This document shows positions 41,303-63,464 of a stretch of DNA of 64,000 nucleotides, in pieces. A program made the position numbers and the translations under genes. The DNA comes from Patescibacteria group bacterium (GTDB taxonomy: Bacteria; Patescibacteriota; Microgenomatia; UM-FILTER-40-11). The stretch lies in NCBI GenBank assembly GCA_035530075.1, contig DATKVM010000005.1, forward strand, positions 167,006 through 231,005. The letters are read 5' to 3'. Every line of letters starts with the position of its first letter. Positions within the stretch are counted from its first letter, which is position 1. The notes under the pieces are model-generated. The model did not search any database. It saw nothing but the letters and a program-made list of their open reading frames with translations, and was not told the DNA's origin.

Positions 41303-41944
41303 TTACTTTTTCAGCTTCCAAATAATCTGGTGGGTTGCGGGATCAACTCCCTTGGAGCGAATCCAGTCTAAGACTTCCGCCCGAATTTCGGGAGTATCTT
41401 TAGTTAAGGAAATATAAAGAGTTAAAGGCCTAGTATAACCAATCCAATAATTCTCCGTTTTGTAAGGAACATAATCAAAAAGCGGCATGGCTTCGTAGGT
41501 TTTTCGGCTTAAGTCCCAGTAGTATTTTTCTACTTCTTCTTTGCTTGGAGTTTTACCCCCTGGCGGTGGTCCTAAGAGGTCAGGGACGGTTTTAAAGGAG
41601 AAGGTAAAATAAAAACTAGGGTCTTGGCTGTTTTTAACCTCGATTTTATATTGCGTGTCTGCCGCTAGTTCTTTTTTAGGAATTACTTCCAGAGTTTCTT
41701 TATCGTTTTTTACAGAAAACTCAAAGCTTGGAAAGGGGATAATCTGCCAGCCTTCAGTAGAAATTGGACGGTCAAAAGTTAATTTCAGGGTTTGTTTGGG
41801 ATAAACATTTTGTTGATTATCGGCCGGGTCGGTTCTAATTATTTTTGGAGTTAGTGGCGGAGGGAGTAATAGTTTTAGGCCAAGCAAAACCCCCACGATT
41901 CCTGCAAGAATAATAATCAATTTAGTTTTTTGACCGACTTTCAT
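41303..41944 (-). CDS. membrane-anchored protein with bacterial Ig-like domain
   Basis: 213 aa with an N-terminal TM. A beta-rich segment begins PADNQQNVYPKQTLKLTFDRPI, resembling Big/SbsA-type Ig-like domains. Confidence 0.4.
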   Translation of the reverse strand: MKVGQKTKLIIILAGIVGVLLGLKLLLPPPLTPKIIRTDPADNQQNVYPKQTLKLTFDRPISTEGWQIIPFPSFEFSVKNDKETLEVIPKKELAADTQYKIEVKNSQDPSFYFTFSFKTVPDLLGPPPGGKTPSKEEVEKYYWDLSRKTYEAMPLFDYVPYKTENYWIGYTRPLTLYISLTKDTPEIRAEVLDWIRSKGVDPATHQIIWKLKK

Positions 41945-47102: not shown

Positions 47103-47894
47103 TTACTTGCTGATAACTTCAATTGGCGAGATAATTTCGCCTTTCAATTCCACTTTGATTATATCAAAGCGGTAGCCTTCTCTTTCCGTTTCTATTTCGT
47201 AAAGACCGCTGGGAAGGGGAGTCGCGCTTCTAAATTGGCCCAATTTATTGGTTCTAAAAGCGCGCACCGGATTCCCGGCGACATCGCGAATTTCAAGAAT
47301 GGCTGACTCGATAATTTTTCCCTGCTGGTCATGGGCGAAACCGGAAAGTAGATTGGGCATCGAAGGGGTAGCCGGAATAGCCATATTCGTAAATTTAGCC
47401 GCGACTGCCGGCGCGAGGGGTGGTTTGGGGATACTTGGCGCCTGAAAGATAGTGGCTGGTCGAGGAGGACTGACCAGTGGTGGGGGAGGAGTGGATCTAG
47501 TGATTGCCGGGGAAGGTGGAGCGGTGGGAGCACTGAGCGGCTTAACCAACGGCAGGGGGGAAACGGGAGAAGTAGTTTTTTTGGTGGAAATCAAATCTTC
47601 TCCTTCTCCTCGCTTTTTCCAAGTATATTGAGTGGGGGAGTAAATTCTTTTAAAGAAGGCAATAATCCAGACATCAATTGGCCGCCCCTCAAACGGCACA
47701 AAAGCGGCGGCTGCCCCGACCCCGCCAAAAAGAAGAATTAAAAACCACTTAATGAAACTGGGGGGATTAATGGCGTAAACAATTAGGGCGAGGACTATCC
47801 CGGCGGCCAATTTGCCGAATTGCCTTAAGGTCATATCGCCGACGAGGCGAAATTCATAACTGGTGATTGGTTGGGGTACTGGGTGTTGTTCCAT
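47103..47894 (-). CDS. membrane protein: N-terminal 2-TM hairpin (VirB3/PrgI-like?), Pro-rich linker, C-terminal carboxypeptidase-regulatory-like beta domain
   Basis: 263 aa with two adjacent hydrophobic helices near the N-terminus. A long P/S/T/A-rich linker leads to the C-terminal QGKIIESAILEIRDVAGNPV...GLYEIETEREGY beta-sandwich motif. Confidence 0.4.
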   Translation of the reverse strand: MEQHPVPQPITSYEFRLVGDMTLRQFGKLAAGIVLALIVYAINPPSFIKWFLILLFGGVGAAAAFVPFEGRPIDVWIIAFFKRIYSPTQYTWKKRGEGEDLISTKKTTSPVSPLPLVKPLSAPTAPPSPAITRSTPPPPLVSPPRPATIFQAPSIPKPPLAPAVAAKFTNMAIPATPSMPNLLSGFAHDQQGKIIESAILEIRDVAGNPVRAFRTNKLGQFRSATPLPSGLYEIETEREGYRFDIIKVELKGEIISPIEVISK

Positions 47895-48592: not shown

Positions 48593-50644
48593 ATGAAAGA
48601 AAAAGGACCCAACGGTTCAGAGTTTCAAGCTCAACCAGCTTCAGACGAAACAGAGAAAGAGAAGACCGAAAGACTGGAAGAGGAACGGAAGCAGGCGCAA
48701 GCTGCGCAGGAAGAGAAGAGGCGGCAACAGCAACCAGAAAAGAAAAGAGGAGAGAGGAGAAGAGAGGAAAGGCCTACAGGGCAAGAACGAGCCGCAAAAA
48801 AACCAGAGGATCAAAGGGCAGCCGAGAGGGCCGCTCAGCTTCCGCAGAGCGAGTCGGTAGCAAGGGAGACTCCGGGCCGCACTTTTGAAGAACGCCAGGC
48901 TGATTATCGAGCAAAGAGAGAAGACTTAGAAGCAAGGATAAAACTGCTAGATGACCAGATTGATGACTTAAAAGCCCAATCTCCTGGGGCGAATGAAGCC
49001 GAGATTGCCAAAACAGAGGCTGAAAAGGCCAGCGTAAACAGGGAATGGAAAGAAACTATTGAGAGGATGGGGAGAGAGCAGGACGAGAGGATCAGAGAAC
49101 TATCCTCTTTTTCCGCGCCAGAGAGAGCAAGGTATGGAGTTCCTGAGGTGGCTTTTGACCCTAACAAACTTGAGGAACAAATGGCTTGGTTCCAAAGAAC
49201 CATTGCCCGAATAGAATCACAAAAACTGCCTTTCACCGAAGCGTGGCAGGATACCTCAGCCCTTAAATGGTTTATTTCTTCCATTGACCTCATAAAATAT
49301 CCGGAACATCTAGGCACTCTACGCACTTTCCAGCAAATATATGAAAATCGCCGGATGCTGCATGATTTTATGTATGTCTATGAGAAGGCAGGGGGAACAG
49401 ACGATATCATCGGCATTGCTCATTATGCTAATTTAGAGAACTTGGAACAATTGATTAAGGGAGATGTTTGGGTGGAGACAGAGGGAGGGATGGTAGCTAG
49501 AGATCCGGTTAAGGCGATGCTTTGGTTCCAAGGGAGAGCAGATAAAGTATTAGAAGAAAGAAAAAAGGTGGCTGAAGCGGCAGCAAAGATGGAAGGAGCC
49601 AGTGGAAGCAAAAAAAAGGAATATAAAACAGAAAAAGATGAAGCAGAAGAAAGAGAAAGGAGCATAATTAGTGAAATGCAGGTTAGGGCAAGGGGAGAGG
49701 TGGTTGAAATAGATAAAGACGCAAAGAAAATTGTTAAGCCCGACGATAAAGAAGGAGCATATTATCGCTTGGGCGGAAGGCTTTTCTCTGCTTTTGGGTT
49801 TGCCGCCCAATACAACATCACCCTTAACGGCTCAGGAGATTTTTTGGTTGGTCGCTTGTTGAATATGAAAGGCCATTTGCTTGACGACAATTGGGCTGGC
49901 CGGGAAAAGCTTTGGAAGTATTTTAGGCAAGAATCTTTTGCCCGTCCCCTTTTTAGTGATAAGCATTTAGGTGATGGCTTTGAAACAAGCGAAAGCGAAG
50001 TTGGTCTGGAAACAACCGAAGAAATTATAGACGAAAAGAAGGGCATTTCCGCCCGAATAACCAGAATAGTCGATGATGACAAACATGGCAAATTTAAAAA
50101 TTTAAGTTTCCGAGCCCATAACGTTGATGGCTCAGCCTACGCTTCCCGTTGGTGCGATCAGAATGTTAAGGCTGACAAGTGGCGGTCCTATGTCCTCTCC
50201 GGAGCAGGATATAGTCAGAGTCCGGATATGCAGACATTTATGGAAATGTCAAAATACTTAGAGCATATTAAAGGTGGTAAAAGGAGAAACAAATTTACAG
50301 AGGGGGTAATGAAAGGATTGATTGAGTTTTATAAAAAGGAAGGGCTGGTGTTTAAAAAAAGCGATGCGCAAAGACTCTTTGGCGATAAAGAGGCATATTG
50401 GAAAAGTGCGCAGGTTGAAGCCGCTCTTAATACCGCAACTCCAGGAATGTTAAGCGCCGAGGGCAGAGAAAAGCTCCTTAAAGAATATGTTGGGGCAAAC
50501 GAATTTACCAGGGGAGTGCGGCATCTTCGTGATAGTCTTGGGAGAAGACCACTCCTTTTCTTCTTAGGTTTCCTTTGGGACGCCCTTTGGGGAGCCTTAG
50601 GTGAAGCAGCCGAACTAAAAGCGGATAAGAAAAAAAGAAGATAA
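48593..50644 (+). CDS. hypothetical protein with highly charged low-complexity N-terminal region
   Basis: 683 aa. The first 100 aa or so are E/K/R/Q-rich, followed by a globular region with no recognised motifs. No TM is present. Confidence 0.45.
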   Translation: MKEKGPNGSEFQAQPASDETEKEKTERLEEERKQAQAAQEEKRRQQQPEKKRGERRREERPTGQERAAKKPEDQRAAERAAQLPQSESVARETPGRTFEERQADYRAKREDLEARIKLLDDQIDDLKAQSPGANEAEIAKTEAEKASVNREWKETIERMGREQDERIRELSSFSAPERARYGVPEVAFDPNKLEEQMAWFQRTIARIESQKLPFTEAWQDTSALKWFISSIDLIKYPEHLGTLRTFQQIYENRRMLHDFMYVYEKAGGTDDIIGIAHYANLENLEQLIKGDVWVETEGGMVARDPVKAMLWFQGRADKVLEERKKVAEAAAKMEGASGSKKKEYKTEKDEAEERERSIISEMQVRARGEVVEIDKDAKKIVKPDDKEGAYYRLGGRLFSAFGFAAQYNITLNGSGDFLVGRLLNMKGHLLDDNWAGREKLWKYFRQESFARPLFSDKHLGDGFETSESEVGLETTEEIIDEKKGISARITRIVDDDKHGKFKNLSFRAHNVDGSAYASRWCDQNVKADKWRSYVLSGAGYSQSPDMQTFMEMSKYLEHIKGGKRRNKFTEGVMKGLIEFYKKEGLVFKKSDAQRLFGDKEAYWKSAQVEAALNTATPGMLSAEGREKLLKEYVGANEFTRGVRHLRDSLGRRPLLFFLGFLWDALWGALGEAAELKADKKKRR

Positions 50645-50660
50645 GGTAATAATTTTTTTA

Positions 50661-52073
50661 TCAGAGTCGTCCAATTGCTTTTTGCCACCAACTTAGTGGA
50701 GTTCTTATGCCAGGAGGCTTCAGGCCACGGGCTGTTTGAATATCAAACATTCTGTTTCCCTCTTCTATTTTCCTTATTGCCCCAATCTGAGGACCGAGAG
50801 TTCGATCAACTCCGCCCGAAATGGTTCCTTGGGCCCAACCGACCGTTTGGCCAATGGCGGTTCCAAAAGTTCCAAACCCAGCGGCCTTAAAGGCTTCGAG
50901 GACTACGTTGGGAATACTTCCGACCGCCATAAGCAAACCCAACCCTAGAATTGCTGTTAAAGCTCCTCCTCCTACTCCTAAGACTGGAGGAGTCCATGTT
51001 GGCCCTTTTCCCACCTCAATAATTACACTGGCTAGGAGCAAGAAAAGCGCCACGGCTGGAAAGACTAAAACATTGGCCAGGAGGTTTAGAAACCAGGCGC
51101 CAAATCCTCCTTTACTGCCCGGGACGGCTCCAAGAAGTATTTGGATTGGACCAATAATGACGGAGACAATAATGGAGATATAAGATTTGAGAAGGTTAAA
51201 AAATAGCTTAAGGACTAAGTAAAGAGCGATAATGAGGAAAATTAAGGTGAAAATAACGCCCCCAATTCCAGCTAGAATCCCCACCAAAATATTAGGGTTT
51301 AATCCTGCAAAAAAGGTCTTCACTACAACTCCCTCCCACACCGCCTTAATGCCGCCCCCCAACACTAAACCATAAGCTTCACCGAAACCGAGACTAACAA
51401 ATTTACGTTGTTCGGCGGCAATCTCGGCCATACTTCCCAAAAGACCACTTTGCCCGATAATTAAAACACCCACATAGATAAGAACATAGATTAAATCAAT
51501 CAGTAAGCCAGCAATGGCATAAGAGAAAGTAACTAAGATTAGGGCAATAACTAGTTTTGGAATGGAGTTTTGAATTGTTACTGCTGTTTTAGGGTCAATT
51601 TTTACCCGAAACATGATGGCCAAACCAGTAAAGAGAAAGATTAAAACAAAGAAAAGATAAGCCAAATTGCGTGAGGCTCGCCAAAGAGGGAGTAGGCTAC
51701 TTAAGCCTCTAAAGCCGATGCCGCCTTGGGCGTAAGCTGGTTTAACCAAGCCAAAGTTCCTTCCGAGATAGGCAAAATATTCGATTGAAGAAGCGGGAGG
51801 ATTAGTATACATTGAAACAATCAAATTGCCAACCGCCGTTAAGGCACCCCCCTCACTTTTGTTAGTATTTTCTGAAGGGGCAATTGATTTAATAACAGAG
51901 ATAGCGAGGTCTTTATAAGTTTCATTAGTGTGGCTTTCTAGGTTTAGATCCGGAAGAGTAAGAGCTTTTTCGTAATCGTCAAGATTAGTGCTTCCTTTGT
52001 AGGCTAGGGTGGACGTAGCATTTATAAATAGAAAAACAAAAGATAATGGAATTATAACCTTGAAGAATTTCAT
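50661..52073 (-). CDS. VirB6/TrbL-like polytopic membrane protein
   Basis: 470 aa. A signal peptide and extracytoplasmic N-domain precede at least 5 TM helices with Gly-rich loops. It sits in the T4SS-like locus. Confidence 0.5.
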   Translation of the reverse strand: MKFFKVIIPLSFVFLFINATSTLAYKGSTNLDDYEKALTLPDLNLESHTNETYKDLAISVIKSIAPSENTNKSEGGALTAVGNLIVSMYTNPPASSIEYFAYLGRNFGLVKPAYAQGGIGFRGLSSLLPLWRASRNLAYLFFVLIFLFTGLAIMFRVKIDPKTAVTIQNSIPKLVIALILVTFSYAIAGLLIDLIYVLIYVGVLIIGQSGLLGSMAEIAAEQRKFVSLGFGEAYGLVLGGGIKAVWEGVVVKTFFAGLNPNILVGILAGIGGVIFTLIFLIIALYLVLKLFFNLLKSYISIIVSVIIGPIQILLGAVPGSKGGFGAWFLNLLANVLVFPAVALFLLLASVIIEVGKGPTWTPPVLGVGGGALTAILGLGLLMAVGSIPNVVLEAFKAAGFGTFGTAIGQTVGWAQGTISGGVDRTLGPQIGAIRKIEEGNRMFDIQTARGLKPPGIRTPLSWWQKAIGRL

Positions 52074-52114: not shown

Positions 52115-54115
52115 TTAGAAACTGCAAGTTGGGCATAAAGGGTCAAAACTTTGAATGTCAATTCCTTGCGGCCTTAAAGCGCAACGTTCCAGACAATATC
52201 GCTTTCTGGCCGCTTCCTGCTGGTAATTCAATGCCGATGAACCGACGCCTACTTGATATCCTTCGACTTTAAACTCCGCTTCTCCGGCTAAGGGTTCATC
52301 CTTATTGCTCGGCTTTATCGCTTCCGGAATAGCGTGATTAAGGTAAGTTGACTGCTCATTAAAAGTTTCCCCGCCGGGCAGTTTCCCTCGGCTTTTATTA
52401 ATTAAAGCCACTTTCGTTTGGGTTACGGTTACCCACTGCCAAATGTTGTCAATTAGTTTCAAAATCGGCTCCAAGACTTTAGTAATGAAGCTGGCGGGAG
52501 TAGAAAAATTGGACTGAAGAGTCGCTAATTGATTAACGGGATTATCCTCGGCCGGGTTTCCCGATTGGCAGGTGATTTCCCACCCCGGCGGCTCAGGCAC
52601 ATTGGCGGCCACTTTAATCGCCATCTTTGGTGGGGGCTCGCAAGCATTAAAAAGCCCGCAAGCAATTTTGGTTGACCCTAGAAGCCGGGTCCACCAGGAG
52701 GGGAGAGTCACTCCTGTTTCCGGAATTTTGCTTGGCTTGCTTGCTGGCCCAAGATCTTCTTTGTCCACCACATAGTGTTTTAGTTTAGTTTTAAGCGGGG
52801 TTGAATCCAGGTTTAGGTTTTGCCGTAAGGCTTGAGGTAAGAGTCGATTAAGACCTAGATAAAGGTTTTGCTCCATTACGGAAAAATTAGGCACCGCCTC
52901 TTTCTGCAGCGTTAAAGAACCTTCTGCCGACTGGCCGCTGCCAGCCGCCAATACCCGTTGTTGTTGGCCAGGGGGCAGAGTTGCCGGAGTGTATTGGGAG
53001 GTTTCGCTGCCTTTATTAAGGCTAAAGTCAGTGCAAATTAAGTTATCTTTCACCGCTAAAATCATTGGCTCGTCTCCCGAGCCACACTCGTTACATTCGC
53101 TGGAGCTGGTAACATAGTAAGCGTGTTGCTTCCCCGGGCAGCGGTTTAATGTTGGGGTGGTAGCAGAGGGGGTAATCCTTTGAGTGTCGCCGCCGCCGCG
53201 GTGACTCTTTAAGAAACTGGCGGTTTTGGCGGAGCCGAAAATGCTCCAGCTCCCGGGGCGATGGGGGTCATAGGAAAAAACGGCAAACATCTTAAAACTT
53301 GAATCTCCTGCCCATTTTGGCCAAACCTTTTCCAGCATTTGGCCAATTTCTTCGTCACGGTAACAGGGGGGAGTACAGGTGCCCGCCACCCCGGTTTCTA
53401 AAGCGTAATAAGGGCTGGGAATACCAATTTCATCATATCGGCAATTATTCATCGGCGGAATTGCCGAGCAGGGACCATTAACAAACTGGTCATATTCATT
53501 AATGGAGGAACCAGCAAAAAGCCCATAGAACCCCGCTTTCCCGCCAGGGTTAGTGAAAAAAGAGCCGTTGATGAATGACGGGTTTAATTTGTCTACCATA
53601 GGAGACAGGAGGATTACTTTTGATCCCAGAATTCCTGCTTCTTGAAACAAATTTTTGAGGAACTGAGAATATTGATAGACCCTGTTTCCCTCCGTCTCCC
53701 CTCCGCCTTCATTTTGGTGGTTTGGTTCGTTCCAGGGCATAAAGTAAACTTTGTTGGGAAAGGGGATACCTTGTAAGGTAGCTGTCCAAGCGCGAGCCTG
53801 ATTTTCGTCGGGAGTTTTTTCGGGATAATGACCGCGAATGACGAGATTAATGTTTTGATATTTGGGGTCGCTGACAATTTTGGCAATCTTGTCGCCATCG
53901 CCAGGACAAGCCATAACTACTACCCAGCCGCCTGGACCGACTAATCCGGCTGCCTGGTCAAATTCTTGCCAGTGGTCGCCAATATTGACTCCGACTTTAT
54001 TTTGGGCTCTTGCCGAACCAGCGGTTAGGAAGAGCAAAGCTGGGAAAATCAGGAGAAAGACCAGTTTTTTCATTGCGCCCTCCGGGTTGCCATCATAGTG
54101 GTCCGGGAATTTCAA
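52115..54115 (-). CDS. secreted putative glycoside hydrolase (GH5-like NEP motif) with Cys-rich C-terminal region
   Basis: 666 aa with a signal peptide. PWNEPNHQ resembles the GH5/clan GH-A acid/base strand. Many Cys lie in the C-terminal half. Confidence 0.4.
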   Translation of the reverse strand: MKFPDHYDGNPEGAMKKLVFLLIFPALLFLTAGSARAQNKVGVNIGDHWQEFDQAAGLVGPGGWVVVMACPGDGDKIAKIVSDPKYQNINLVIRGHYPEKTPDENQARAWTATLQGIPFPNKVYFMPWNEPNHQNEGGGETEGNRVYQYSQFLKNLFQEAGILGSKVILLSPMVDKLNPSFINGSFFTNPGGKAGFYGLFAGSSINEYDQFVNGPCSAIPPMNNCRYDEIGIPSPYYALETGVAGTCTPPCYRDEEIGQMLEKVWPKWAGDSSFKMFAVFSYDPHRPGSWSIFGSAKTASFLKSHRGGGDTQRITPSATTPTLNRCPGKQHAYYVTSSSECNECGSGDEPMILAVKDNLICTDFSLNKGSETSQYTPATLPPGQQQRVLAAGSGQSAEGSLTLQKEAVPNFSVMEQNLYLGLNRLLPQALRQNLNLDSTPLKTKLKHYVVDKEDLGPASKPSKIPETGVTLPSWWTRLLGSTKIACGLFNACEPPPKMAIKVAANVPEPPGWEITCQSGNPAEDNPVNQLATLQSNFSTPASFITKVLEPILKLIDNIWQWVTVTQTKVALINKSRGKLPGGETFNEQSTYLNHAIPEAIKPSNKDEPLAGEAEFKVEGYQVGVGSSALNYQQEAARKRYCLERCALRPQGIDIQSFDPLCPTCSF

Positions 54116-54548
54116 ATTTGGTTACATCTACTCCGGTAATAGTTTGAATCAGTTTTAAGATAAACCAAATTCCCAAGAAAACCACTAGCCCGCCAATCGC
54201 GTAAGTAAGAGTTGAGCGAGCTTTTTGCATCGCTTTGGCGTCTCCGCCTGCCGTTAAAAGTTGAAATGAGCCGACAATGAGCATCACAAACATTGCTAAG
54301 CCAGCAATTGGCGTTAAAATGCGGACAATATTGATAAAAAGGCATTCAAATCCCTGGATGGTCGCCACGTCTTCTGTCCCCGGAATTTGGCCAAGGCAGT
54401 TTTTAGAAATATCCCCCCAAGGTTGGGGAAAAGATTCTTGAGCGAGCACCGGTGGGGATAAGAAGTGAGAAGCAAAAAGCGAGACAGTGCTTATTAGCAC
54501 AAAACAGCCAGACAACAAGCCAACAAGATAACTGCTAATCTTCTTCAC
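54093..54548 (-). CDS. VirB2/TrbC-like pilin paralog 1
   Basis: Signal peptide, then helix, a TAGGDAK loop, a second helix and a short tail. This architecture is shared with 7 paralogs. Confidence 0.6.
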   Translation of the reverse strand: MKKISSYLVGLLSGCFVLISTVSLFASHFLSPPVLAQESFPQPWGDISKNCLGQIPGTEDVATIQGFECLFINIVRILTPIAGLAMFVMLIVGSFQLLTAGGDAKAMQKARSTLTYAIGGLVVFLGIWFILKLIQTITGVDVTKFEIPGPL

Positions 54549-54646
54549 ATTTTTAGTCTAACATAACTATCTTGAGAGTAAAAGAAGTTGTCAAACTCAA
54601 AAGCGCCAACTTTCGCTGGCGCTTCCATTTTTCTTCCTTAACTTGC

Positions 54647-55081
54647 CTATTTGACCGTAAAGGTAGGGATTTGCAAATTAAGAATATTGACGCCGAAAAG
54701 CGCTTGGATTAAAGCGATAATGGCCCAAGCGGCAAAAACAATCGCCAAACCGATTAAAGCATTAGTAATTCTTTTGCGGGCAGTTTCCGTCCCGGCCTTA
54801 TCGCCACCGGAGGTAATCCATTGGATTCCCCCGATAACTAAGACAAAGAAAAAGATAATGGCGGCCGCAATCAAGACCAACCTAATTGCTCCCTGAAGAA
54901 TACTCACCAGGGTAATATTAAGCAGTCCCTCAAACCCCGAACCCTCACCCGGTTCGATTTGAATTTCCGACGGCAGCGGCGCTACGGTCGTTCCCGCTAA
55001 AGCCACGGAAGGGTTAATTAAAAAGACACCAACCGCTAGCGAAATACTCGCTAAAACCTTTCTAACTTTACTCATATTCAC
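54647..55081 (-). CDS. VirB2/TrbC-like pilin paralog 2
   Basis: Shares the architecture, with conserved WITSGGDKAG...ITNALIGLAI. Confidence 0.6.
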   Translation of the reverse strand: MNMSKVRKVLASISLAVGVFLINPSVALAGTTVAPLPSEIQIEPGEGSGFEGLLNITLVSILQGAIRLVLIAAAIIFFFVLVIGGIQWITSGGDKAGTETARKRITNALIGLAIVFAAWAIIALIQALFGVNILNLQIPTFTVK

Positions 55082-55094
55082 CCCCTTTCGGTAA

Positions 55095-55475
55095 CTAAAA
55101 AGACGGTAGTTTTAATCGAGTGAGTTTAATGTCAAAGAAAAACTCGATTGCTCCTATTATAGCAAAGATTGAAAGGAGAATGGCAAGGCCGATTAAAGCG
55201 TTGGTAATAGTTTTTTGGGCCGATTCCATTCCCGCCTTGTCGCCTCCGGCGGTAATCCATTTAATCGCGCCGATTAAGAAAATAAAAACAAAAACAACCG
55301 CTCCGCTAATTAGAAAGAGGTTGATAGCCAAAGTCAGTCCTTTTTGAAGGAAAGCCAGGCCGGAAAGTTGGCTGATTGGAGTAGGCAATATCGGATTGTG
55401 AATGTCCGGCATCGGCGTGACTGCCGCCAGAAGCTTTTGGCCAAGAAGAGTAGTGTTCAAAACTAAAGATATCAT
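55095..55475 (-). CDS. VirB2/TrbC-like pilin paralog 3
   Basis: Conserved WITAGGDKAG...ITNALIGLAI and a two-helix hairpin. Confidence 0.6.
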   Translation of the reverse strand: MISLVLNTTLLGQKLLAAVTPMPDIHNPILPTPISQLSGLAFLQKGLTLAINLFLISGAVVFVFIFLIGAIKWITAGGDKAGMESAQKTITNALIGLAILLSIFAIIGAIEFFFDIKLTRLKLPSF

Positions 55476-55882
55476 TTAGGGGCTAAATCTTTAATAAATT
55501 TGGCCACCGAGAGAATATTGGGAATGCCGATTAAACTGCCGATAAGGTCAATAAGGAAGGTAGCCGATAAGACCAAAATTAAGCCAATTATGCCGGTCGT
55601 AATTTGTTTTTGGGCATTTTGCAGTTTGGTTTTGTCGCCGCCGGAAGCCAGCCAGCCGATGGCGCCAGTGAATAGAACAAAGGTAAACCAAATAACGGCA
55701 ATAATCGTCATTACCCCGATAATGTTCGAAAGAATATTGACAAAAGTGCTAATCGCCGTAATTTCGTTAGTTAGAGGCCAGCTCTCCCCTCCCAAGATGC
55801 CAATTCCCTCCAGGGGCCCTAACTGAACTCCGGAAGGGGTCGGCCCGGCGGCTAAAACTGATTTAGTCAAATTAAGGTCCAT
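55472..55882 (-). CDS. VirB2/TrbC-like pilin paralog 4
   Basis: Conserved WLASGGDKTK...ITTGIIGLIL. Its start overlaps the neighbouring gene. Confidence 0.6.
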   Translation of the reverse strand: MDLNLTKSVLAAGPTPSGVQLGPLEGIGILGGESWPLTNEITAISTFVNILSNIIGVMTIIAVIWFTFVLFTGAIGWLASGGDKTKLQNAQKQITTGIIGLILVLSATFLIDLIGSLIGIPNILSVAKFIKDLAPK

Positions 55883-56399
55883 AAATTGTTGGCACTAAAA
55901 TCGCCCTGGCATCGCCAAAGATTAACCAGCCAAAAATGGCGGCCAGGACGAAGGAGCCGGCGACAAAAAGAAGTCCGAGCAAAGATTGCCAAATTCTTGC
56001 CCAGGCTTGCTCAACTTTTTTGGCGTCGCCCCCGGCTCCCATAAAACTGTAGCCGGCAATAATAATATTAAAAAAGGCAAAGAGCCCAGCCGCACCAATG
56101 AGTAATTTAAGCAAAACGTTCATAAATTTAACTAGGCCAGTTTGGAAATCACCATATTCGGAAACCCCCTGGGGAGCAGCGATAGAACCAAAAAAGCTTG
56201 CTGGGGCGGGCGTTCGACATTGGGGACAGTTTTCAGGTAAAGAACATCGCGTGTCATTACAGGGGATACCTCCTATATTGGCGGGTTTACCGCACAAATA
56301 GGGACAAGTGTCTGCCAAAACCGTTGACGCTGAGCAAAAAAGAAAGAAGACTAAAAAAATTAAGATGGGCGTTATTGCCTTCGCAAATTTATTTTTCAT
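55872..56399 (-). CDS. VirB2/TrbC-like pilin paralog 5 with Cys-rich N-terminal module
   Basis: A signal peptide and an 8-Cys segment (CPYLCGK...CNDTRCSLPENCPQC) precede a C-terminal GAGGDAKK two-helix pilin module. Confidence 0.55.
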   Translation of the reverse strand: MKNKFAKAITPILIFLVFFLFCSASTVLADTCPYLCGKPANIGGIPCNDTRCSLPENCPQCRTPAPASFFGSIAAPQGVSEYGDFQTGLVKFMNVLLKLLIGAAGLFAFFNIIIAGYSFMGAGGDAKKVEQAWARIWQSLLGLLFVAGSFVLAAIFGWLIFGDARAILVPTIYGP

Positions 56400-56740
56400 T
56401 ACAGTTTAGGGTTTAGGATGTCAATTCCCGTGATAAATCCAATAATTTGGATAATCCAGTAACTGGCAAAAATAATTAAAAAGCCGATTACTGCGGCTGT
56501 GGCCGCTTTTTGTCCTTGGCCCGCTTTTTTTGGATCACCTCCGCCTGCTCCCAGAATAATTGATATGCCACCGAAAAGCAATAAAACCAGCAAGAATAAA
56601 CCGGCCACCATATAGACGTTGCGGAGAATAATGGAAATTAAAGCTCCGGGAGACTGAAACTGGGGAGCATCTTTAATTGCTTCGCCAGGCTTAAGAAACC
56701 ATTCTTTGCCAATGTTAACTTCCGCCAAAAGATTTTTCAT
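56399..56740 (-). CDS. VirB2/TrbC-like pilin paralog 6 (shortest, possibly the major subunit)
   Basis: 113 aa with GAGGGDPKKAG between two hydrophobic helices. It is the first gene of the tandem array. Confidence 0.6.
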   Translation of the reverse strand: MKNLLAEVNIGKEWFLKPGEAIKDAPQFQSPGALISIILRNVYMVAGLFLLVLLLFGGISIILGAGGGDPKKAGQGQKAATAAVIGFLIIFASYWIIQIIGFITGIDILNPKL

Positions 56741-56814: not shown

Positions 56815-57879
56815 ATGCCGCAAGATTTCCAACAAGTTTTAGCTGAAAAAAGAGAAATTGTTTGGCAGGAAATCCAAAAATACTTAAAAACCCCTCGGTT
56901 TCCAGGAAAAATAGCTATTCCCCCCAAATATCAAAAGGAAATGGATTTTCATTGGCAGATAGTGCGAACTTATCCAGAAAGATTAGGAAAGTACTTGCGG
57001 CCAACACTGGTCTTGTTAACCGCGGAAGCGATGGGGGTGCCAGAGGAGAAAGCCATCAGAACTGCGGCGGCAATGCAAACTTCAGAGGATTGGATTTTGA
57101 TTCATGATGATTTTGAGGATGGTTCACTAGCCAGGCGGGGAGATGCGACGCTTCATCGACTTTATGGAGAAGAACTGGCGGTTAATGCTGGTGATGGCTT
57201 GCATATAGTAATGTGGAAGATGCTTTGGGATAACCGGAGGGTTCTAGGAGAGAAAAAAGCAGAGGAAGTGACGGAGGAATTTTATCAAATGTTAACGCGA
57301 ACGATCTTTGGCCAGGCAGTAGAGATTAAATGGACAAAAGACAATCGGCAAGACTTGACAGATGAGGACATTTTCTTAATCTTGGATGGTAAAACTTCTT
57401 ATTACACCATTGCCGGACCAATGCGCTTGGGGGCAATTCTTGGGGGAGCCACCGCAAAACAGTTAGAAGCGCTTTGGGAATTTGGTCAACTTCTTGGCCG
57501 CTGTTTTCAAATTACAGACGACCTTCTGGACTTAACCTCCGACTTTCGCGGTCTTAAAAAGCAGATAGGTAATGATATTTATGAAGGGAAGAGGACAATT
57601 ATGCTCATGCATTTATTCCGAAAAGCTAAAGGAAAAGATAAAGAGAAGCTAAGCCGGATTATGCGGAAGGGCCGTGAGGAAAAGACAGAGACAGAGACAG
57701 AGTGGATAATAAACCAAATGAAAGAGTGTGGCAGTTTAGATTATGGCCGAAGGATTGCCCAGGATTTAGCGACTAAAGCCTTAGAGGCCTTTGAGACAAA
57801 ACTTGATTTTTTGAGAAAACAACCCGCTCGAGATCAATTGAAAGCAGGAATAGATTTTATCCTCAAAAGAGATTTTTAG
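56815..57879 (+). CDS. polyprenyl diphosphate synthase (trans-IPPS, GGPP/FPP synthase-like)
   Basis: First DDxxD (IHDDFEDG) and second DDxxD (ITDDLLD) motifs with correct spacing. Confidence 0.85.
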   Translation: MPQDFQQVLAEKREIVWQEIQKYLKTPRFPGKIAIPPKYQKEMDFHWQIVRTYPERLGKYLRPTLVLLTAEAMGVPEEKAIRTAAAMQTSEDWILIHDDFEDGSLARRGDATLHRLYGEELAVNAGDGLHIVMWKMLWDNRRVLGEKKAEEVTEEFYQMLTRTIFGQAVEIKWTKDNRQDLTDEDIFLILDGKTSYYTIAGPMRLGAILGGATAKQLEALWEFGQLLGRCFQITDDLLDLTSDFRGLKKQIGNDIYEGKRTIMLMHLFRKAKGKDKEKLSRIMRKGREEKTETETEWIINQMKECGSLDYGRRIAQDLATKALEAFETKLDFLRKQPARDQLKAGIDFILKRDF

Positions 57880-57884
57880 AAGAG

Positions 57885-58682
57885 ATGGCTCAACAGGATT
57901 TAGTTTTGATCAAACTTGGCGGAAGTTTAATAACAGACAAAACGAAACCACTTGCTGCCAGGGAAGAGGTAATTAGAAGGTTGGGTGAAGAGATTAAAAG
58001 TGGGATGGAAAAATTTTCTGGAAAGATAGTTATTGGTCATGGAAGTGGCTCTTTTGGTCATACAGTGGCGGCTAAATATCAAACACAAGATGGAATAATA
58101 AATAAAAGAAGCATCGAGGGTTTAACCTTAGTCGCGGACGCTGCAATCCGGATAAACAGAATTGTCGTTAAGAATTTTTTGAGAATTGGTTTGCCCGTTT
58201 TTTCTCTTTCCCCAGCAAGTTTTCTAACTGCTGAGGATCAAAAACCCCACAAAGTTTTTCTTGATCCGATTTTTGAGCTTCTTCACAGAGGGCTAATTCC
58301 AATAATTTATGGAGATGTAATTTTAGATGCTAAAAGTGGTTGTTGTATATTTTCGTCTGAAAAGACTCTAAACATTCTGGCCTCCAATCTGGTGAAAGAA
58401 TTTAAGATCTTAAAGGTTATTCACTGTGGAGATACTGACGGGGTTTATAACTCAGAAGGAAAGACAATTCCAATGATTACGGAAGGTTCATTTAGGACGT
58501 TTCAAAAGGCAATTGGAGGCTCTAGGGCCACTGATGTGACTGGGGGAATGTTTCATAAAGTGAAGGAATCACTAGAAGTCGCTCGCCTAGGAGTTTGCTC
58601 TCTCGTTATTAACGGTAAAAAACCAGGAAATCTTAAAAGTGCGATACTAGGGAAGAAAACAGAGGGGACTTTAATAAAGTAA
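57885..58682 (+). CDS. isopentenyl phosphate kinase (amino-acid-kinase family)
   Basis: N-terminal LIKLGGSLITDK and GHGSGSFGH motifs characteristic of IPK/AAK-fold kinases. 265 aa. Confidence 0.7.
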   Translation: MAQQDLVLIKLGGSLITDKTKPLAAREEVIRRLGEEIKSGMEKFSGKIVIGHGSGSFGHTVAAKYQTQDGIINKRSIEGLTLVADAAIRINRIVVKNFLRIGLPVFSLSPASFLTAEDQKPHKVFLDPIFELLHRGLIPIIYGDVILDAKSGCCIFSSEKTLNILASNLVKEFKILKVIHCGDTDGVYNSEGKTIPMITEGSFRTFQKAIGGSRATDVTGGMFHKVKESLEVARLGVCSLVINGKKPGNLKSAILGKKTEGTLIK

Positions 58683-58703
58683 TAACTAGATACCAACGAA
58701 CAT

Positions 58704-59237
58704 ATGGCCAAACAACAACTTATTTTAGTTGATGAAGATGATAAATTTTTGGGTCGGTATGCAATAAAGGCCGATTGTCACACAGGTGAAGGCTTGCATC
58801 ACCGAGCGTTTACTCTTTTAATTATTAATAACCAGAAAGAAGTCCTGCTCCAGGATAGGAAGCACCAACTTTGGGATCATTTTTGGGACTTAACTAACAG
58901 TCACCCCCTTCATTTAGAGAATGGTTCAGACGAAACCACCCCACAGGCGGCCAGCCGTTGTCTTAGAAGAGAATGGGGGATAGATTTTCCAGTTAAAAAA
59001 CTCTTTACTTTTAATTATTTCAGTCAATACGAAGGGAATTTCTGCGAAAACGAATGTTGCTATTTTTTAGTGGGGAAATATCAGGGAGAAGTTCACCCTA
59101 ATCCGGAAGTGGCTTATGGATACAAGTGGATGCCCCTCGACCAACTTTTAGAAGACATAAATATCCATCCGGAAATTTATACCCCTTGGTTGATGAGAGC
59201 TTTAAAGGAGGTCAAGAAGAGAAATCTGAATGTTTAA
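58704..59237 (+). CDS. idi: isopentenyl-diphosphate delta-isomerase type 1 (Nudix-fold IDI)
   Basis: IDI-1 active-site pattern TNSHP (Cys/His region) and the CENEC Glu/Cys motif. 177 aa. Confidence 0.7.
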   Translation: MAKQQLILVDEDDKFLGRYAIKADCHTGEGLHHRAFTLLIINNQKEVLLQDRKHQLWDHFWDLTNSHPLHLENGSDETTPQAASRCLRREWGIDFPVKKLFTFNYFSQYEGNFCENECCYFLVGKYQGEVHPNPEVAYGYKWMPLDQLLEDINIHPEIYTPWLMRALKEVKKRNLNV

Positions 59238-59745
59238 GGATAAATTTCTGTCTGAAATCTCTTCGCCATTCGAGGCCCGACTAAAAGCTTTTATCCGACA
59301 AAAAGTGGACAACGAAAACGATGCTGAAGATATTTTCCAGGAAACCTTAGTTGCTGCCTCTCAAAGCTTGCCTACTTTTAAAGGCAAGTCTTCTTTTTTT
59401 ACTTGGCTTTGCGGCATTGCCAATCATGAAATTGCTGACTTTTATCGAAAAAAGAAAATTAAGACTTTTTTGTTCTCACGCTTTCCTTTTTTAGAAACTT
59501 TAGTTTCTGAGGCTTTAGGGCCGGAAGAAGAATTATTAAAGCAGGAGCTGAGAAAGGAGGTGAAACAAGTTTTAAGCCGCATAAGCGAAGGATATTCTTT
59601 GGTTTTGCGACTAAAGTATTACCAAGGCTTAAGTATGGCAGAAATTGCCGAGAAATTGGGAATGACAGTTAAAGCCGTGGAATCCAAGCTGTCGCGGGCG
59701 AGAGAGGCTTTCCGCGTTCAATGGAACGCTCAATATAAAAAATGA
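59230..59745 (+). CDS. ECF-type RNA polymerase sigma factor
   Basis: Sigma region 2 (DAEDIFQETLVAA ... FFTWLCGIANHEIADFYRKK) and region 4 HTH (LSMAEIAEKLGMTVKAVESKLSRAREAF). Confidence 0.85.
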   Translation: MFKDKFLSEISSPFEARLKAFIRQKVDNENDAEDIFQETLVAASQSLPTFKGKSSFFTWLCGIANHEIADFYRKKKIKTFLFSRFPFLETLVSEALGPEEELLKQELRKEVKQVLSRISEGYSLVLRLKYYQGLSMAEIAEKLGMTVKAVESKLSRAREAFRVQWNAQYKK

Positions 59746-60113
59746 AAATGAAAATAGAAAAAATACATATAAAAATTAAAAAAGTTATGAGATTTGGGGT
59801 TTTGGTGGGAATAAAAGAGAGTTACTTACTGGTAAAGAATGCCTATGGGTTATATAGCCATCCGTTCTTGACGACTAAAAGAATTATGGAGGAAAAAGAT
59901 TTATCCCAAGGCCTTTTGCTTTTCGGCTTACCAATTTATCTTTGGTTGGCTTGGGTTTTGATTTTATTAGTCTCCCGAATCTTCATTTTTAAAGAGCTTC
60001 GTTTTGGCTTTCTAGCCAAAACCTCATTTTTACTTTCCTCTTTCTCGCTCTCCATCCTTTCTCTCTTTTTGGGCTATTGGCTATTTATGGTTTGTCGAAA
60101 GAAGGCGAAGTGA
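59742..60113 (+). CDS. putative membrane anti-sigma factor (co-transcribed with ECF sigma)
   Basis: 123 aa with a 4-nt overlap with the sigma gene and 2 to 3 hydrophobic helices. There is no conserved motif, so the call rests on position only. Confidence 0.3.
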   Translation: MKMKIEKIHIKIKKVMRFGVLVGIKESYLLVKNAYGLYSHPFLTTKRIMEEKDLSQGLLLFGLPIYLWLAWVLILLVSRIFIFKELRFGFLAKTSFLLSSFSLSILSLFLGYWLFMVCRKKAK

Positions 60114-60415
60114 GTTCAGAAAGAGGACATGGACTATCTTGGGGGTGGCGCGAAATGCGGCAGTTTGGAGTTAGTAAGGGGGTTTGTGGCGAGGAGCAGC
60201 GGGTGGTTTTCCAGAACCCGGGAGAGAGGATTCTTGGTCTTTTGCGCGGGAAATTATATATGTGGCATCAACCGATATTCGATGAGGAGGGAAAGCTGAT
60301 TGGCCATCATCTCGGGTGGTCTCTATTATCAGAAGAATACGATCAGCAGTTTCGAGAAGCCAGAAGAGACAAACTTGTTCCCCGTGAGGCTTAGTGTTAG
60401 AATTCGTTCACACAA

Positions 60416-61120
60416 ATGGTTAAATTAGACAAAAAAAATATCCCCCAACACGTTGCCATTATTATGGACGGCAACCGGCGGTGGGCAAAAGCGCGGGGGC
60501 TCTCTGTTAATGAAGGCCATGAGGAGGGAGCTAAAAACTTGGACCGGGTTGTTAGACGAGCAGAGGAGCTAGGGATTAGGTATCTAACCTTTTATACCCT
60601 CTCAACTGAAAATTGGCGCAAACGGACCAAACAAGAGGTCAAAGGAATTTTTGATTTGCTCTTAAGGATGGTTAAGGAGAAAAAAGAGCAGTATGAAAAA
60701 GAAGGGGTCAAGCTTTTTGTTTTGGGTAACTTCCAAGCTTTTCCCCGCAAAGTTGCCCGAGCAATTGCCGAAATGCTCAAAATTGTCCTCAAGCACGAAA
60801 GAATTAAAGTCAATCTCGCCTTAAATTATGGTGGTCGGGACGAGATTATTAAAGCGATTCAAGAAATTATTAAAGAGGGAGTTCCTCCCGAAAAAGTCAA
60901 TGAGGAGCTGGTAGCCAAACACCTCTATACTAATGGCCAACCGGATCCAGACTTAATTATCCGCACTGGGGGTGAAGTTCGGCTCTCTAACTTCCTTCTT
61001 TGGCAAATGTCCTACTCCGAGCTTTATTTTACTGATATTTTATGGCCGGACTTTGGACCTCGCGAGCTTGAGCGAGCGATATTTGAATATCAAAGAAGGC
61101 AAAGGCGATTTGGGAAGTAG
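60416..61120 (+). CDS. uppS: undecaprenyl diphosphate synthase (cis-prenyltransferase)
   Basis: HVAIIMDGNRRWA, RTGGEVRLSNFLLWQ and the canonical UppS length (234 aa). Confidence 0.95.
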   Translation: MVKLDKKNIPQHVAIIMDGNRRWAKARGLSVNEGHEEGAKNLDRVVRRAEELGIRYLTFYTLSTENWRKRTKQEVKGIFDLLLRMVKEKKEQYEKEGVKLFVLGNFQAFPRKVARAIAEMLKIVLKHERIKVNLALNYGGRDEIIKAIQEIIKEGVPPEKVNEELVAKHLYTNGQPDPDLIIRTGGEVRLSNFLLWQMSYSELYFTDILWPDFGPRELERAIFEYQRRQRRFGK

Positions 61121-61233: not shown

Positions 61234-61566
61234 TTAATTCTTTTGCTTCTGCCAAAGACTGCGTGCTTTGATTTTTAGTTCTGGAACTGCCATTGCAATT
61301 ATTCTTAGCCAATACTTTGTCTCCTTGGCCTCTTTTTTGCACAGGCTAATTTTATGTTTGAAGTCCATTTTCGATTCGGCGTTATCAGCCTCACAATAGT
61401 TGGCTCCTATGCTAGTGGCCGCTCGGACTAATTGGCTAATAAGGGAGATGGTTATTGGGGATTGAGGAACTTTCTTAGAAAATTCAATTATTGCTTCACC
61501 AAAGTTCGCTGTTCTTTCTTCTAAGTCATAATTTTTGTTTTGACCAATTGGGTTTTGATTGGTCAT
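61234..61566 (-). CDS. four-helix-bundle protein (23S rRNA IVS-encoded protein family)
   Basis: 110 aa. Core SIGANYCEA ... KHKISLCKKEAKETKYWL is typical of the four-helix-bundle family. Confidence 0.7.
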   Translation of the reverse strand: MTNQNPIGQNKNYDLEERTANFGEAIIEFSKKVPQSPITISLISQLVRAATSIGANYCEADNAESKMDFKHKISLCKKEAKETKYWLRIIAMAVPELKIKARSLWQKQKN

Positions 61567-61590: not shown

Positions 61591-62277
61591 CTAAAATATC
61601 TGTATTCCTAAGATAACTTCCAGTATTTGGACTAACCAGTAGGAAATAAAAAGCAATAAAAATCCTGCTAAGGCACTGGTGATTTTTCCTTTAGCCGAGG
61701 CTAATCCTTTTTCATCGTTAGCAGCAATCATCATTTGAAAGCCGCCGGCAATTAAATAGAACAAAAGGAGTAAGCCGGCAATAACAAAAAGATAAGGCAA
61801 AAGGCCAAAAATGATTGCTCCTACATCAGAAGAGAGGCCCGGCAGGAATTGCTCTTTGAGTCCGGTTTCTTTCCCAAATTGTTTACCAAGCTGACCAAAA
61901 TCAATTCCCGAGTTACCACTTTCTTCTGAGAAAGTAGCCGTGCTTTTAGTAGGAACAGGTGTGGAAGTGGAAATAGAAGTTGGCGATGTTCCCCCTCGGC
62001 AATAACCGTTCATGCAGGTCTGGCCACTAACACAAGAGGGGTTTGGGTTGGGACAACAAGGATAGGGATATTGGCCACAAAGCGATCCTTGTTTACAGTA
62101 TCCATTCTGGCAATACCATTCAGGAAAACCGCAACAGGGGAGACTCACATCACAAGAGTTAGTGTTTTCGTAACAACTTACGGCTTTAACATGAGGAACG
62201 TGGAGAACGAATGGGAATGTTAAAATAAAGGAGGCTATAGTCACAAGCGGTAAGGATTTAGATTTTATTTTGATCAT
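61591..62277 (-). CDS. VirB2/TrbC-like pilin paralog 7 fused to Cys-rich N-terminal domain
   Basis: A signal peptide and about 70 aa with 16 Cys (CYENTNSCDVSLPCCGFPEWYCQNGYCKQG...) precede a Ser/Thr linker. The C-terminal two-helix module has AANDEKG. Confidence 0.55.
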   Translation of the reverse strand: MIKIKSKSLPLVTIASFILTFPFVLHVPHVKAVSCYENTNSCDVSLPCCGFPEWYCQNGYCKQGSLCGQYPYPCCPNPNPSCVSGQTCMNGYCRGGTSPTSISTSTPVPTKSTATFSEESGNSGIDFGQLGKQFGKETGLKEQFLPGLSSDVGAIIFGLLPYLFVIAGLLLLFYLIAGGFQMMIAANDEKGLASAKGKITSALAGFLLLFISYWLVQILEVILGIQIF

Positions 62278-62279
62278 TA

Positions 62280-63464
62280 CTATTTTCTAAACCCAGGAAT
62301 TTGTAAAATATCCACTCCGATTAATTTTAGCAGAAATAGGGAGAGAATAATCAGCAAAAGTCCGCTAATAGCGCTGGTAATCAGCTCGCCTCCGGCTTTG
62401 ACTTTCTCAGGGTTGCCGCCGGAGACAGTGATTTGAATGGCGCCTAAGGCCATTAAAAGGAAAGCAATCCCCGAAGCGATAAAAGTAACTTTTCCTAAAA
62501 GCCAACCGACAAATCTGTCAACACTGTCGACCGGGATACACCCAATAGCTGTTGTTACTCCCGTTCCCCCATCACAGGTGACGTCTATTATGGGAATATT
62601 TTGTATATACAGGCCTGTTCCCAGCGTGCAGTTAATTTTGTCTACAGTTATCTTTGATTGAAAGAACCCATAATTCTTGCAGCATGTTTTTGTCAGATCA
62701 GTACCCAAAGGACAATCAAAGAAACTACTCGTAAAACCTTCAGGGCAACAATATGGACCTGTAATAGTACTTCCGCAAGGAATTTTAGAGATGGTTTCTT
62801 TTAGTTGAAAAAGTCCATAATTTTTGCAGCAAAATCTAGAGGTATCTGTGCCCGTAGGACAGTCCAAACTGCGATCGCTATAGCCATCAGGACAACAAAA
62901 GGACGGCTGCCGTGAGGCCTCGCTTCCACAAGGAACTCTATCAGCGGTTTCTTTATAGCCAAAAGACCCGCTATTTCTGCAGCATTTTTTGGTTATATCT
63001 GTGCCTGAGGGACAATCCCAACAATTTTCAGAAAAACCGGCGGGACAGCAAAGGGGTTCGTTATCAATTGTGCCACAAGGAATTCTGTCTTTAGTTTCTT
63101 TCTCGCAAAAAAATCCATGATTCTTACAGCATTGTTTTGATAAGTCTGTAAAGGACGGGCAATCCATGGCATTTTCGGTAAAACTTGGAGGGCAACAAAG
63201 TAGTTCGGTTGTCTGCCCTCTAATAGATGAAGGTAGCCTTAAAGACAAAAGCAAGAAAAACAAACAGAGCAACGATAGTCTTTTGATCATGAAAGCCGTC
63301 TCCTTCTTAAAATCATAACATAACTGTTTGCAAATGGTAAAATTAAAAGTAATGCTCAAACTTAAGCTTCGTTGGTTGAAATTCACGGTTTTAATCTTTA
63401 CTTTCCTTTTTTTGGGTTTTTCCAGCTTCGGAACAATTAGTGTTCGGGCTGAGTGCCCGGCCAC
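62280..63464 (-). CDS. VirB2/TrbC-like pilin paralog 8 fused to four Cys-rich repeats
   Basis: Four roughly 45-aa repeats (CCPxGF(T/S)xxxxDCPxGTDx(T/S)KxCCKNxGxFxxKETxDxIPCG) precede a C-terminal VSGGNPEKVKAG two-helix pilin module. 1-nt spacing to paralog 7. Confidence 0.55.
   Translation of the reverse strand: MAGHSARTLIVPKLEKPKKRKVKIKTVNFNQRSLSLSITFNFTICKQLCYDFKKETAFMIKRLSLLCLFFLLLSLRLPSSIRGQTTELLCCPPSFTENAMDCPSFTDLSKQCCKNHGFFCEKETKDRIPCGTIDNEPLCCPAGFSENCWDCPSGTDITKKCCRNSGSFGYKETADRVPCGSEASRQPSFCCPDGYSDRSLDCPTGTDTSRFCCKNYGLFQLKETISKIPCGSTITGPYCCPEGFTSSFFDCPLGTDLTKTCCKNYGFFQSKITVDKINCTLGTGLYIQNIPIIDVTCDGGTGVTTAIGCIPVDSVDRFVGWLLGKVTFIASGIAFLLMALGAIQITVSGGNPEKVKAGGELITSAISGLLLIILSLFLLKLIGVDILQIPGFRK

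Follow-up and report, generated by a model that had tools for sequence, protein, structure and literature searches.

Eight positionally fixed T4SS_pilin-family paralogs, probable VirB2-like pilus subunits, at a Microgenomatia type IV secretion locus

The 64,000-nucleotide (nt) stretch of contig DATKVM010000005.1 analyzed in this work (the window) carries a row of six small genes on the minus strand at 54093-56740, named W1 to W6 in the order of their transcription, and two further paralogs on the same strand at 61591-63464, named Wu2 and Wu1. These eight genes probably encode VirB2-like subunits of the family PF18895 (T4SS_pilin), which would serve a chromosomal, oriC-proximal, monoderm-type type IV secretion system (T4SS) by a pilus mechanism in a bacterium of the Microgenomatia (Patescibacteria, also called the candidate phyla radiation, CPR). 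Patescibacteria account for a sizeable part of bacterial diversity and live as cells attached to a host. What we observed in support is the protein family, features of topology, the gene context, orthology, selection and an enrichment of terminator-like hairpins after W5.

The common module and its family

A first-pass annotation of this DNA had described six consecutive minus-strand genes of 113 to 175 amino acids (aa) that share one module, together with two paralogs at 61.6-63.5 kb, and this description was borne out by the open reading frame (ORF) list, a multiple alignment and a hidden Markov model (HMM) of the module. The array begins with W1 (56399-56740, minus strand; 113 aa), continues with W2 (55872-56399, minus; 175 aa), W3 (55472-55882, minus; 136 aa), W4 (55095-55475, minus; 126 aa) and W5 (54647-55081, minus; 144 aa) and ends with W6 (54093-54548, minus; 151 aa). 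In the public annotation, W5 starts at the ATG at 55075 and has 142 aa, and its exact public protein is P0001. The junctions from W1 to W6 are, in order, -1, -11, -4, +13 and +98 nt. Thus, the overlaps of 1 to 4 nt on which a single operon had been proposed were found twice (1 and 4 nt), but the third overlap measures 11 nt and at two junctions the genes are 13 and 98 nt apart; the four junctions between W1 and W5 fit a single operon. Of the two remaining paralogs, Wu2 (61591-62277, minus; 228 aa) is composed of a signal peptide, a Cys-rich and Thr/Ser/Pro-rich ectodomain and a C-terminal pilin module, and Wu1 (62280-63293, minus; ORF up to 63464, 394 aa) of a signal peptide, four Cys-rich repeats and a C-terminal pilin module. 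The GTG listed as the start of Wu1 is probably wrong; its true start is probably the internal ATG at 63293, which yields the signal peptide MIKRLSLLCLFF, like those of its orthologues.

Alignment of the eight C-terminal modules, a comparison suggested in the first-pass annotation, extended over ~85 aa in all eight paralogs. When a six-frame translation of the whole window was searched with the module HMM, exactly eight ORFs were retrieved, at E values from 4e-24 to 3e-34 (W1, 2e-29; W2, 7e-30; Wu2, 7e-27; Wu1, 4e-24), and no ninth copy appeared in the 64 kb. Since the search returned these eight ORFs only, the repetition is real and restricted to two places. Hydropathy analysis revealed in each module two hydrophobic segments of ~23-28 residues, separated by a polar loop of 17-19 residues. 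The loop bears the motif (T/S/A)GGD(K/A)...A(Q/R)..IT..(L/I)IGL, with two to four K/R and one or two D/E residues, so that the loop motif and the helix pair stand as first described. An AlphaFold2 model of W5 (predicted local distance difference test score, pLDDT, 81.8 overall) contains a helical hairpin formed by residues 58-90 and 95-129 at pLDDT >90; a Foldseek comparison of this model with the PDB gave no match with E<1.

Signal peptides had been assigned to every member of the array. Hydropathy supported such an N-terminal hydrophobic segment for W2 (residues 3-33), W5 and W6, as well as for Wu1 and Wu2, but not for W1, W3 and W4. In W2 the signal peptide is followed by a Cys-rich stretch and then by the pilin module, in W5 it ends with ALA before a G, and in W6 it accompanies the module. 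The orthologues of W1 and W3 likewise lack a signal peptide; those of W4 in the related loci L001 and L003 carry one, together with a Cys-rich insert. We also noticed that W1, W3, W4 and their orthologues in L001, L003 and a third related locus, L005, all open with a brief M-x-x-(L)LA(A/E/V) stretch that looks conserved and recalls the tail of a signal peptide minus the hydrophobic core. It might represent a remnant, a short leader or a coincidence.

Variable N-terminal ectodomains distinguish some of the copies. That of Wu1 consists of four tandem repeats of ~50 aa with the consensus CCPxGFxxxxxDCPxGTDxxKxCCKNxGxFxxKETxxxIPCG, for which no match was found in Pfam; Tandem Repeats Finder detected no corresponding tandem repeat at the DNA level. 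Wu1 orthologues start with a signal peptide and have 131-252 aa, giving a family range of 131-394 aa with the ORF of the window included, and Wu2 orthologues have 112-268 aa.

PF18895 was the best Pfam family for all eight paralogs. Its gathering score of 26.6 bits was exceeded by W3 (33.5 bits, E 4.6e-8), W5 (29.8 bits) and W6 (32.9 bits, E 7e-8). It was also the top family for W1 (23.0 bits, E 8.3e-5), W2 (E 8e-4), W4 (E 1.2e-4), Wu1 (E 7.7e-4) and Wu2 (E 6.7e-4), at E values of 8e-5 to 8e-4, and for 77/77 aligned homologues (best 7e-11). A database search with W5 listed 1,908 relatives, headed by an identical protein from a public metagenome-assembled genome (MAG) named 'Patescibacteria group bacterium'; nearly all of those listed bear PF18895 and come from Microgenomates-type MAGs. 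Both features expected of this family, two helices joined by a short charged loop and an adjoining T4SS gene cluster, were found here.

Other families matched less well. NF045849 gave weak matches in 75/77 homologues (best E 7.4e-7) and in five of the eight window paralogs (W2, E 1.5e-5; Wu2, E 1.8e-5), which span nearly the whole 80-residue model; all of them, in the eight paralogs and the 77 homologues alike, lie below the 40-bit equivalog cut-off, the best in the window reaching 24.5 bits (W2). Sub-threshold matches to TIGR03758 were obtained in 13/77 homologues. In a search with TrbC/VirB2-type models, the check proposed for the original assignment, TrbC PF04956 matched 18/77 homologues (best 2e-4), all under its 27.9-bit cut-off, and PF18895 scored best instead. 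The genes are therefore filed under PF18895 rather than PF04956, as homology to VirB2/TrbC is not demonstrable by sequence profile. Of the first assignment to VirB2/TrbC, the topology and the T4SS context hold, but membership in PF04956 does not. Likeness to VirB2 is, by analogy, one of topology and gene context, with demonstrable homology lacking.

That context includes three T4SS genes on the minus strand. A VirB4-like T4SS ATPase is encoded at 44388-46370 (PF19044 TraG P-loop, E 3.3e-29; AAA_10, E 2.1e-13), a PrgI/VirB3-like protein at 47103-47894 (PF12666 PrgI, E 2.2e-7; 31.8 bits against a 27-bit cut-off) and a 470-aa polytopic membrane protein of VirB6-like fold, the candidate platform for pilus assembly, at 50661-52073. 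A phmmer search of PDB sequences gave no match to the 470-aa protein. The genes dnaA and dnaN lie 1-5 kb past the T4SS cluster. Along with the family assignment, these neighbours uphold the view that the proteins are of the T4SS type and not type IV (PilA) pilins: the motif G/FTLIE, or more generally G/F(T/S)L(I/L)E, is present in none of the eight, and their hydrophobic helices are paired and C-terminal. Rfam gave nothing in the array region.

Orthology, selection and the place of W5

To place the array among its relatives, we compared the surroundings of W5 with those of its orthologues in three related genomes (54-70% identity), where the layout proved the same as in the window. Two pilin-like genes stand by uppS, followed by an opposite-strand isoprenoid/sigma-factor block, six small genes, a large secreted protein and then a VirB6-like gene. 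Each paralog of the window scored best against its own positional counterpart in L001, L003 and L005. The comparison was then taken across a broader set, in which 387 relatives were found, one genome per species was scanned, and module-bearing ORFs in 46 loci with complete flanks were classified by orthogroup HMMs. Eight copies were present in 35/46 loci, the exact 2+6 order Wu1-Wu2-W1-W2-W3-W4-W5-W6 was found in 30 of the 46, and the W1-W6 order was kept in 36. This count of paralogs across related genomes had been proposed along with the claim of an unusual expansion, a claim that it does not support: eight copies are normal for this Microgenomatia lineage, and arrays of 2-11 genes have been published (PMC12102498). 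The public records assign 'uncultured Gammaproteobacteria bacterium', 'Clostridia bacterium' or 'Alphaproteobacteria bacterium' as titles to many of the related MAG contigs with the locus (L010-L084); these look like mislabelled bins.

Over the module, orthologues share 48-87% identity, versus 22-53% for paralogs (paralog mean, 33.5%). W2 is 74-86% identical to its orthologues. W4 is the least conserved position (48-60%), and its nearest paralog is W5, at 53% over the module; these two are also the only paralogs with similarity at the DNA level, which covers 119 nt at 73%. A repeat search of the array found neither recombination repeats nor inverted repeats of an invertible element. The ratio of nonsynonymous to synonymous substitution rates (dN/dS), calculated against the closest relative, L087, at a near-saturated dS of ~1-1.4, was 0.07-0.14 for all six of W1 to W6. 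These data indicated that W1-W6 are under purifying selection and that the eight paralogs are ancient, positionally fixed one-to-one orthogroups: the duplications are old, and each copy is individually maintained. Because the orthogroups are fixed by position and under purifying selection, they point to specialised, non-redundant subunits.

Among these copies W5 stands apart. Its module is the most conserved of all (87%, 87% and 78% identity to the orthologues), its dN/dS is the lowest of the six (0.068), and the AAAGGGG Shine-Dalgarno sequence 5' of it is the only clear ribosome-binding site among W1-W6. RNAfold predicted a terminator-like GC-rich hairpin directly 3' of W5 (54599-54626, minus strand; 54601-54624 in a pattern scan), with a stem of 10-12 bp and a GAAA loop, followed by TTTTGAGTTT. 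A hairpin with a T-tract occupies the equivalent place in L001, L003 and L005, with differing sequences. In the full set of fetched loci, W5-type genes were followed by a strong T-tract hairpin in 26 of 87 cases, versus 0-2 per 50-77 at each other position. A promoter-like site, TTGACA-17-GATAGT, lies 5' of W6 (54566-54594, minus strand); it is a consensus match only, at 10/12 the best in a scan of 50-64 kb. Being the most conserved copy, with a canonical signal peptide, the sole good ribosome-binding site and the sole terminator-like hairpin, W5 is the leading candidate for the role of major subunit. For a major structural subunit, one would expect a terminator or attenuator after the best-conserved and best-translated gene.

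A pilus model and its alternatives

What we infer is the orientation in the membrane, the formation of a filament, its heteromeric assembly and the part played by W5. Each protein would enter the cytoplasmic membrane as a two-helix hairpin with both termini outward and the GGD-K/R loop in the cytoplasm. The VirB4 ATPase, anchored by PrgI/VirB3, would then drive the extraction of subunits and their stacking on the VirB6-like platform, and the product would be a tube or a short pilus reaching to the host cell, with the charged loops lining its lumen. The variable N-terminal extensions, including the Cys-rich domains of Wu1, Wu2 and W2, would lie outside, so that Wu1 would display its four Cys-rich repeats, and Wu2 its Cys- and Thr/Pro-rich region, on the surface. 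Since W1, W3 and W4 lack a signal peptide, their N-out insertion requires another route; in the model, their short, weakly charged N-tails would cross the membrane by signal-peptide-independent translocation. The loop had been described as external. The positive-inside rule, together with the example of solved VirB2/TraA pili, places the K/R-bearing loop more probably on the cytoplasmic side while in the membrane and towards the lumen once in a filament, and the orientation first given is probably inverted.

Of the readings put forward at the outset for the number of paralogs, that of major and minor subunits is favoured and compatible with the evidence. A further step, in which all eight co-assemble into one heteromeric T4SS tube with W5 as the shaft, Wu1, Wu2 and W2 as tip or adhesin and W1, W3 and W4 as base or initiator, is a tentative proposal that we would not yet expect to hold in full. 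If true, a monoderm would have a conjugative-type pilus of several subunits, in contrast to the homopolymeric VirB2/TraA pili, through which nutrients or effectors would pass to or from the host cell.

Several results weigh against a pilus built of VirB2-like subunits. Five of the eight paralogs (W1, W2, W4, Wu1 and Wu2) score 19.9-23.0 bits, below the gathering score of PF18895, and PF04956 was matched among the eight by W5 only, at E 0.39. When the family alignment was compared by hhalign with eight annotated plasmid VirB2/TrbC proteins, the probability was 2.4%; with PrgF of the plasmid pCF10 it was 0.6% (E 0.1), and PrgF itself has no match to PF18895. A search of PDB sequences with the family profile returned no pilin, its sole match being a chance one to a taste-receptor fusion. 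Three of the six array proteins are without a signal peptide, the dN/dS values come from a comparison in which dS is near saturation, and the hairpin after W5 occurs in ~30% of species and is absent in ~70%. Finally, no Patescibacterium has been seen with a filament made of these proteins; the structures solved to date are those of type IV pili and Ig-like Pam pili. Identity with the Pam pilus (2026 preprint) was considered and rejected, as Pam pili are made of Ig-like donor-strand pilins.

Some of these points also favour the alternative that survives best, namely, that the proteins are T4SS components without an extracellular pilus, forming parts of a membrane channel or a very short wall conduit or acting as exported 'effectors'. 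Monoderm T4SSs have long been considered pilus-less, the homologous genes of TM7x were named 'six putative effector genes' or a 'Sec-secreted array', the filaments known from CPR bacteria are of the two other types just mentioned, and searches by sequence and by fold found nothing that ties the array to solved pilins, in addition to the three copies that lack a signal peptide. We nevertheless regard this alternative as unlikely, since proteins with two long hydrophobic helices are improbable as soluble secreted effectors, and eight conserved subunits are many for a purely membrane-embedded role. Moreover, the large Cys-rich ectodomains of Wu1 and Wu2 suggest surface display, and PrgF_B2 of pCF10, a protein of the same topology, is reportedly essential and has been modelled as a pilus on VirB6.

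Still less probable, in our judgement, is that the paralogs serve as a diversification device, through antigenic or phase variation or through adaptation to different host strains; the former had been raised in the first-pass annotation, and such roles are speculated on in PMC12102498. The paralogs are indeed highly divergent (22-53% over the module, comparable to the published array mean of 25%), and the N-terminal ectodomains of orthologues vary widely, from 131 to 394 aa in Wu1 and from 112 to 268 aa in Wu2 and with or without a Cys-rich insert in W4; the VirB2 paralogs of Bartonella and Anaplasma provide precedents. However, strict one-to-one positional orthology, with the same 2+6 order in 30/46 species-level loci, and a dN/dS of 0.07-0.14 argue against variation of this kind. 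The array also has no flanking inverted repeats and no long repeats that could sustain gene conversion, the W4/W5 similarity of 119 nt at 73% being the only one. Furthermore, the array genes are translationally coupled, which indicates that they are co-expressed and not alternately expressed. Fixed, individually conserved subunits, one of which stands out as the likely major pilin, thus constitute the comparative result of this work, and they argue against the antigenic-variation reading in the literature.

An origin among unrelated small membrane proteins that share two transmembrane (TM) helices by chance, such as holins, bacteriocin immunity proteins or transporter subunits, is effectively excluded: although a helical hairpin is a generic fold, sub-threshold matches to other membrane families (MASE10, DUF2165 and others) are scattered among the results, and one source labels homologues 'TRAP-type C4-dicarboxylate transport system permease small subunit', none of the eight matched PHROGs at E<=0.01, which leaves the holin outcome named in the first-pass annotation without a hit, the defence library PADLOC gave two marginal matches only (W6, E 0.003; W4, E 0.005), PF18895 was the top family throughout the paralogs and the 77 homologues, synteny with the VirB4, PrgI and VirB6-like genes is kept across many genomes, and the array is essential along with the T4SS in Southlakia epibionticum.

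Neighbouring genes and known systems

Directly 3' of W6 lies the gene for a secreted conserved protein (52115-54073, minus strand), which has 652 aa when read from the ATG at 54073. In the ORF list the gene starts at a TTG and codes for 666 aa (52115-54115), and a GGAGGG ribosome-binding site precedes the ATG. The protein matched nothing in Pfam, NCBIfam or PDB sequences. Relatives carry syntenic genes of 650-980 aa, always between the pilin array and the VirB6-like gene, and the product could be the tip/adhesin or wall-hydrolase equivalent of the T4SS. Its N-terminal part contains the stretch 'MPWNEPNHQNEGG', which, to judge by its letters, is reminiscent of the NEP motif of glycoside hydrolase family 5 (GH5).

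In the middle of the T4SS cluster, the plus strand (48593-50644) encodes a highly charged protein of 683 aa with a Lys/Glu/Arg-rich N-terminus and no Pfam match; related genomes have an opposite-strand gene for 678-897 aa at this position. An 817-aa protein (41969-44422, minus strand), whose gene overlaps the end of the VirB4 gene, has no Pfam match either, and phmmer returned chance matches only among PDB sequences (E at least 0.47). A wall hydrolase, an analogue of VirB1/PrgK, may reside in its Cys/His-containing C-terminus. It is followed by the gene for a 213-aa protein with a Big_5 Ig-like domain (41303-41944, minus strand). Neither a relaxase nor a coupling protein was recognised among the scanned large ORFs of the window, the rest of which are housekeeping genes or without a family match.

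The two pilin loci are separated by an isoprenoid block on the opposite strand (56815-61120, plus), which was present in all relatives examined. It comprises genes for a polyprenyl synthase, an amino-acid-kinase-fold protein, which is probably an isopentenyl phosphate kinase, an IDI-like protein and UppS, as well as an extracytoplasmic function (ECF)-type sigma factor with a small membrane protein; two relatives have mevalonate-pathway kinases in the block too. Directly 3' of Wu2 (61234-61566, minus strand) is a gene for a 110-aa protein of the '23S rRNA-intervening sequence protein' family (PF05635, E 1.6e-15), and this position is empty in four related loci examined.

The canonical VirB2/TrbC/TraA pilins (PF04956) are likewise small two-helix proteins with a short charged loop, encoded in clusters with VirB3, VirB4 and VirB6 equivalents, and their long cleavable signal peptide has a counterpart in some of the present copies. 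They differ from the window proteins, which show no significant similarity to them, belong to a monoderm and number eight paralogs instead of one, several without a signal peptide and some with large Cys-rich N-terminal ectodomains. In addition, no gene of the window was recognised as VirB5-like, and a tblastn search of 72,556 plasmids with W5 found no homologue.

In monoderms, analogues are known among the VirB2-like proteins of Gram-positive conjugative T4SSs, such as PrgF_B2 of the Enterococcus plasmid pCF10, a VirB2-like pilin recently proposed to form a pilus in a monoderm T4SS (bioRxiv 10.64898/2025.12.18.695078). By analogy PrgF_B2 shares the two-TM hairpin with a charged loop, the monoderm T4SS and a gene position close to the VirB6-like gene. 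PrgF is, however, a single 75-aa gene of a conjugative plasmid with a relaxase and a type IV coupling protein (T4CP), whereas the window has eight chromosomal genes. The Mbov_0395/MMCAP2_0565 family (NF045849) of Mycoplasma integrative and conjugative elements (ICEs) is the most consistent second-best named family, though not as an equivalog; Mollicute ICEs fall into the same monoderm T4SS class (MPF_FATA) to which the VirB4 of Patescibacteria is related. Several divergent virB2-like genes in one locus are also known from the T4SSs of Bartonella and Anaplasma. Those copies are thought to serve antigenic variation or breadth of host range, in contrast to the fixed orthogroups under purifying selection described here.

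The nearest systems are the arrays already published from Patescibacteria themselves. 'Candidatus Southlakia epibionticum' ML1 has a series of six pilins of the PF18895 type, which Wang et al. found to be essential (2023, Cell; PMC10633639), and the T4SS that includes this series is the only one reported to be essential for its own bacterium (Wang 2023; FEMS review 2025). The latter review (PMC12857230) describes six divergent VirB2-like pilins and a possible pilus in a monoderm T4SS. Quiñonero-Coronel et al. applied PF18895 and related profiles to 3,035 Patescibacteria genomes (2025; PMC12102498) and reported 441 arrays of 2-11 pilin genes each in 383 assemblies, mostly of Microgenomatia and Saccharimonadia, with a mean pilin identity of 25% within arrays and with T4SS clusters near dnaA. 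The array of the window is an instance of this kind and is, as such, already known: it shares with the published ones the PF18895 family, a tandem size within the 2-11 range, low identity among paralogs, monoderm-type VirB4, PrgI/VirB3 and VirB6-like neighbours, the vicinity of dnaA, the lack of a relaxase or coupling protein (among the window ORFs scanned) and the Microgenomatia lineage, said to be rich in such arrays, and no essential difference from them emerged. New in relation to PMC12102498 are the strict 2+6 positional orthology, the purifying selection on each copy and the hairpin specifically after the fifth gene. Thus, the window adds no new kind of system to those on record, and it yields concrete hypotheses for structural and genetic work on the pilins of Patescibacteria.

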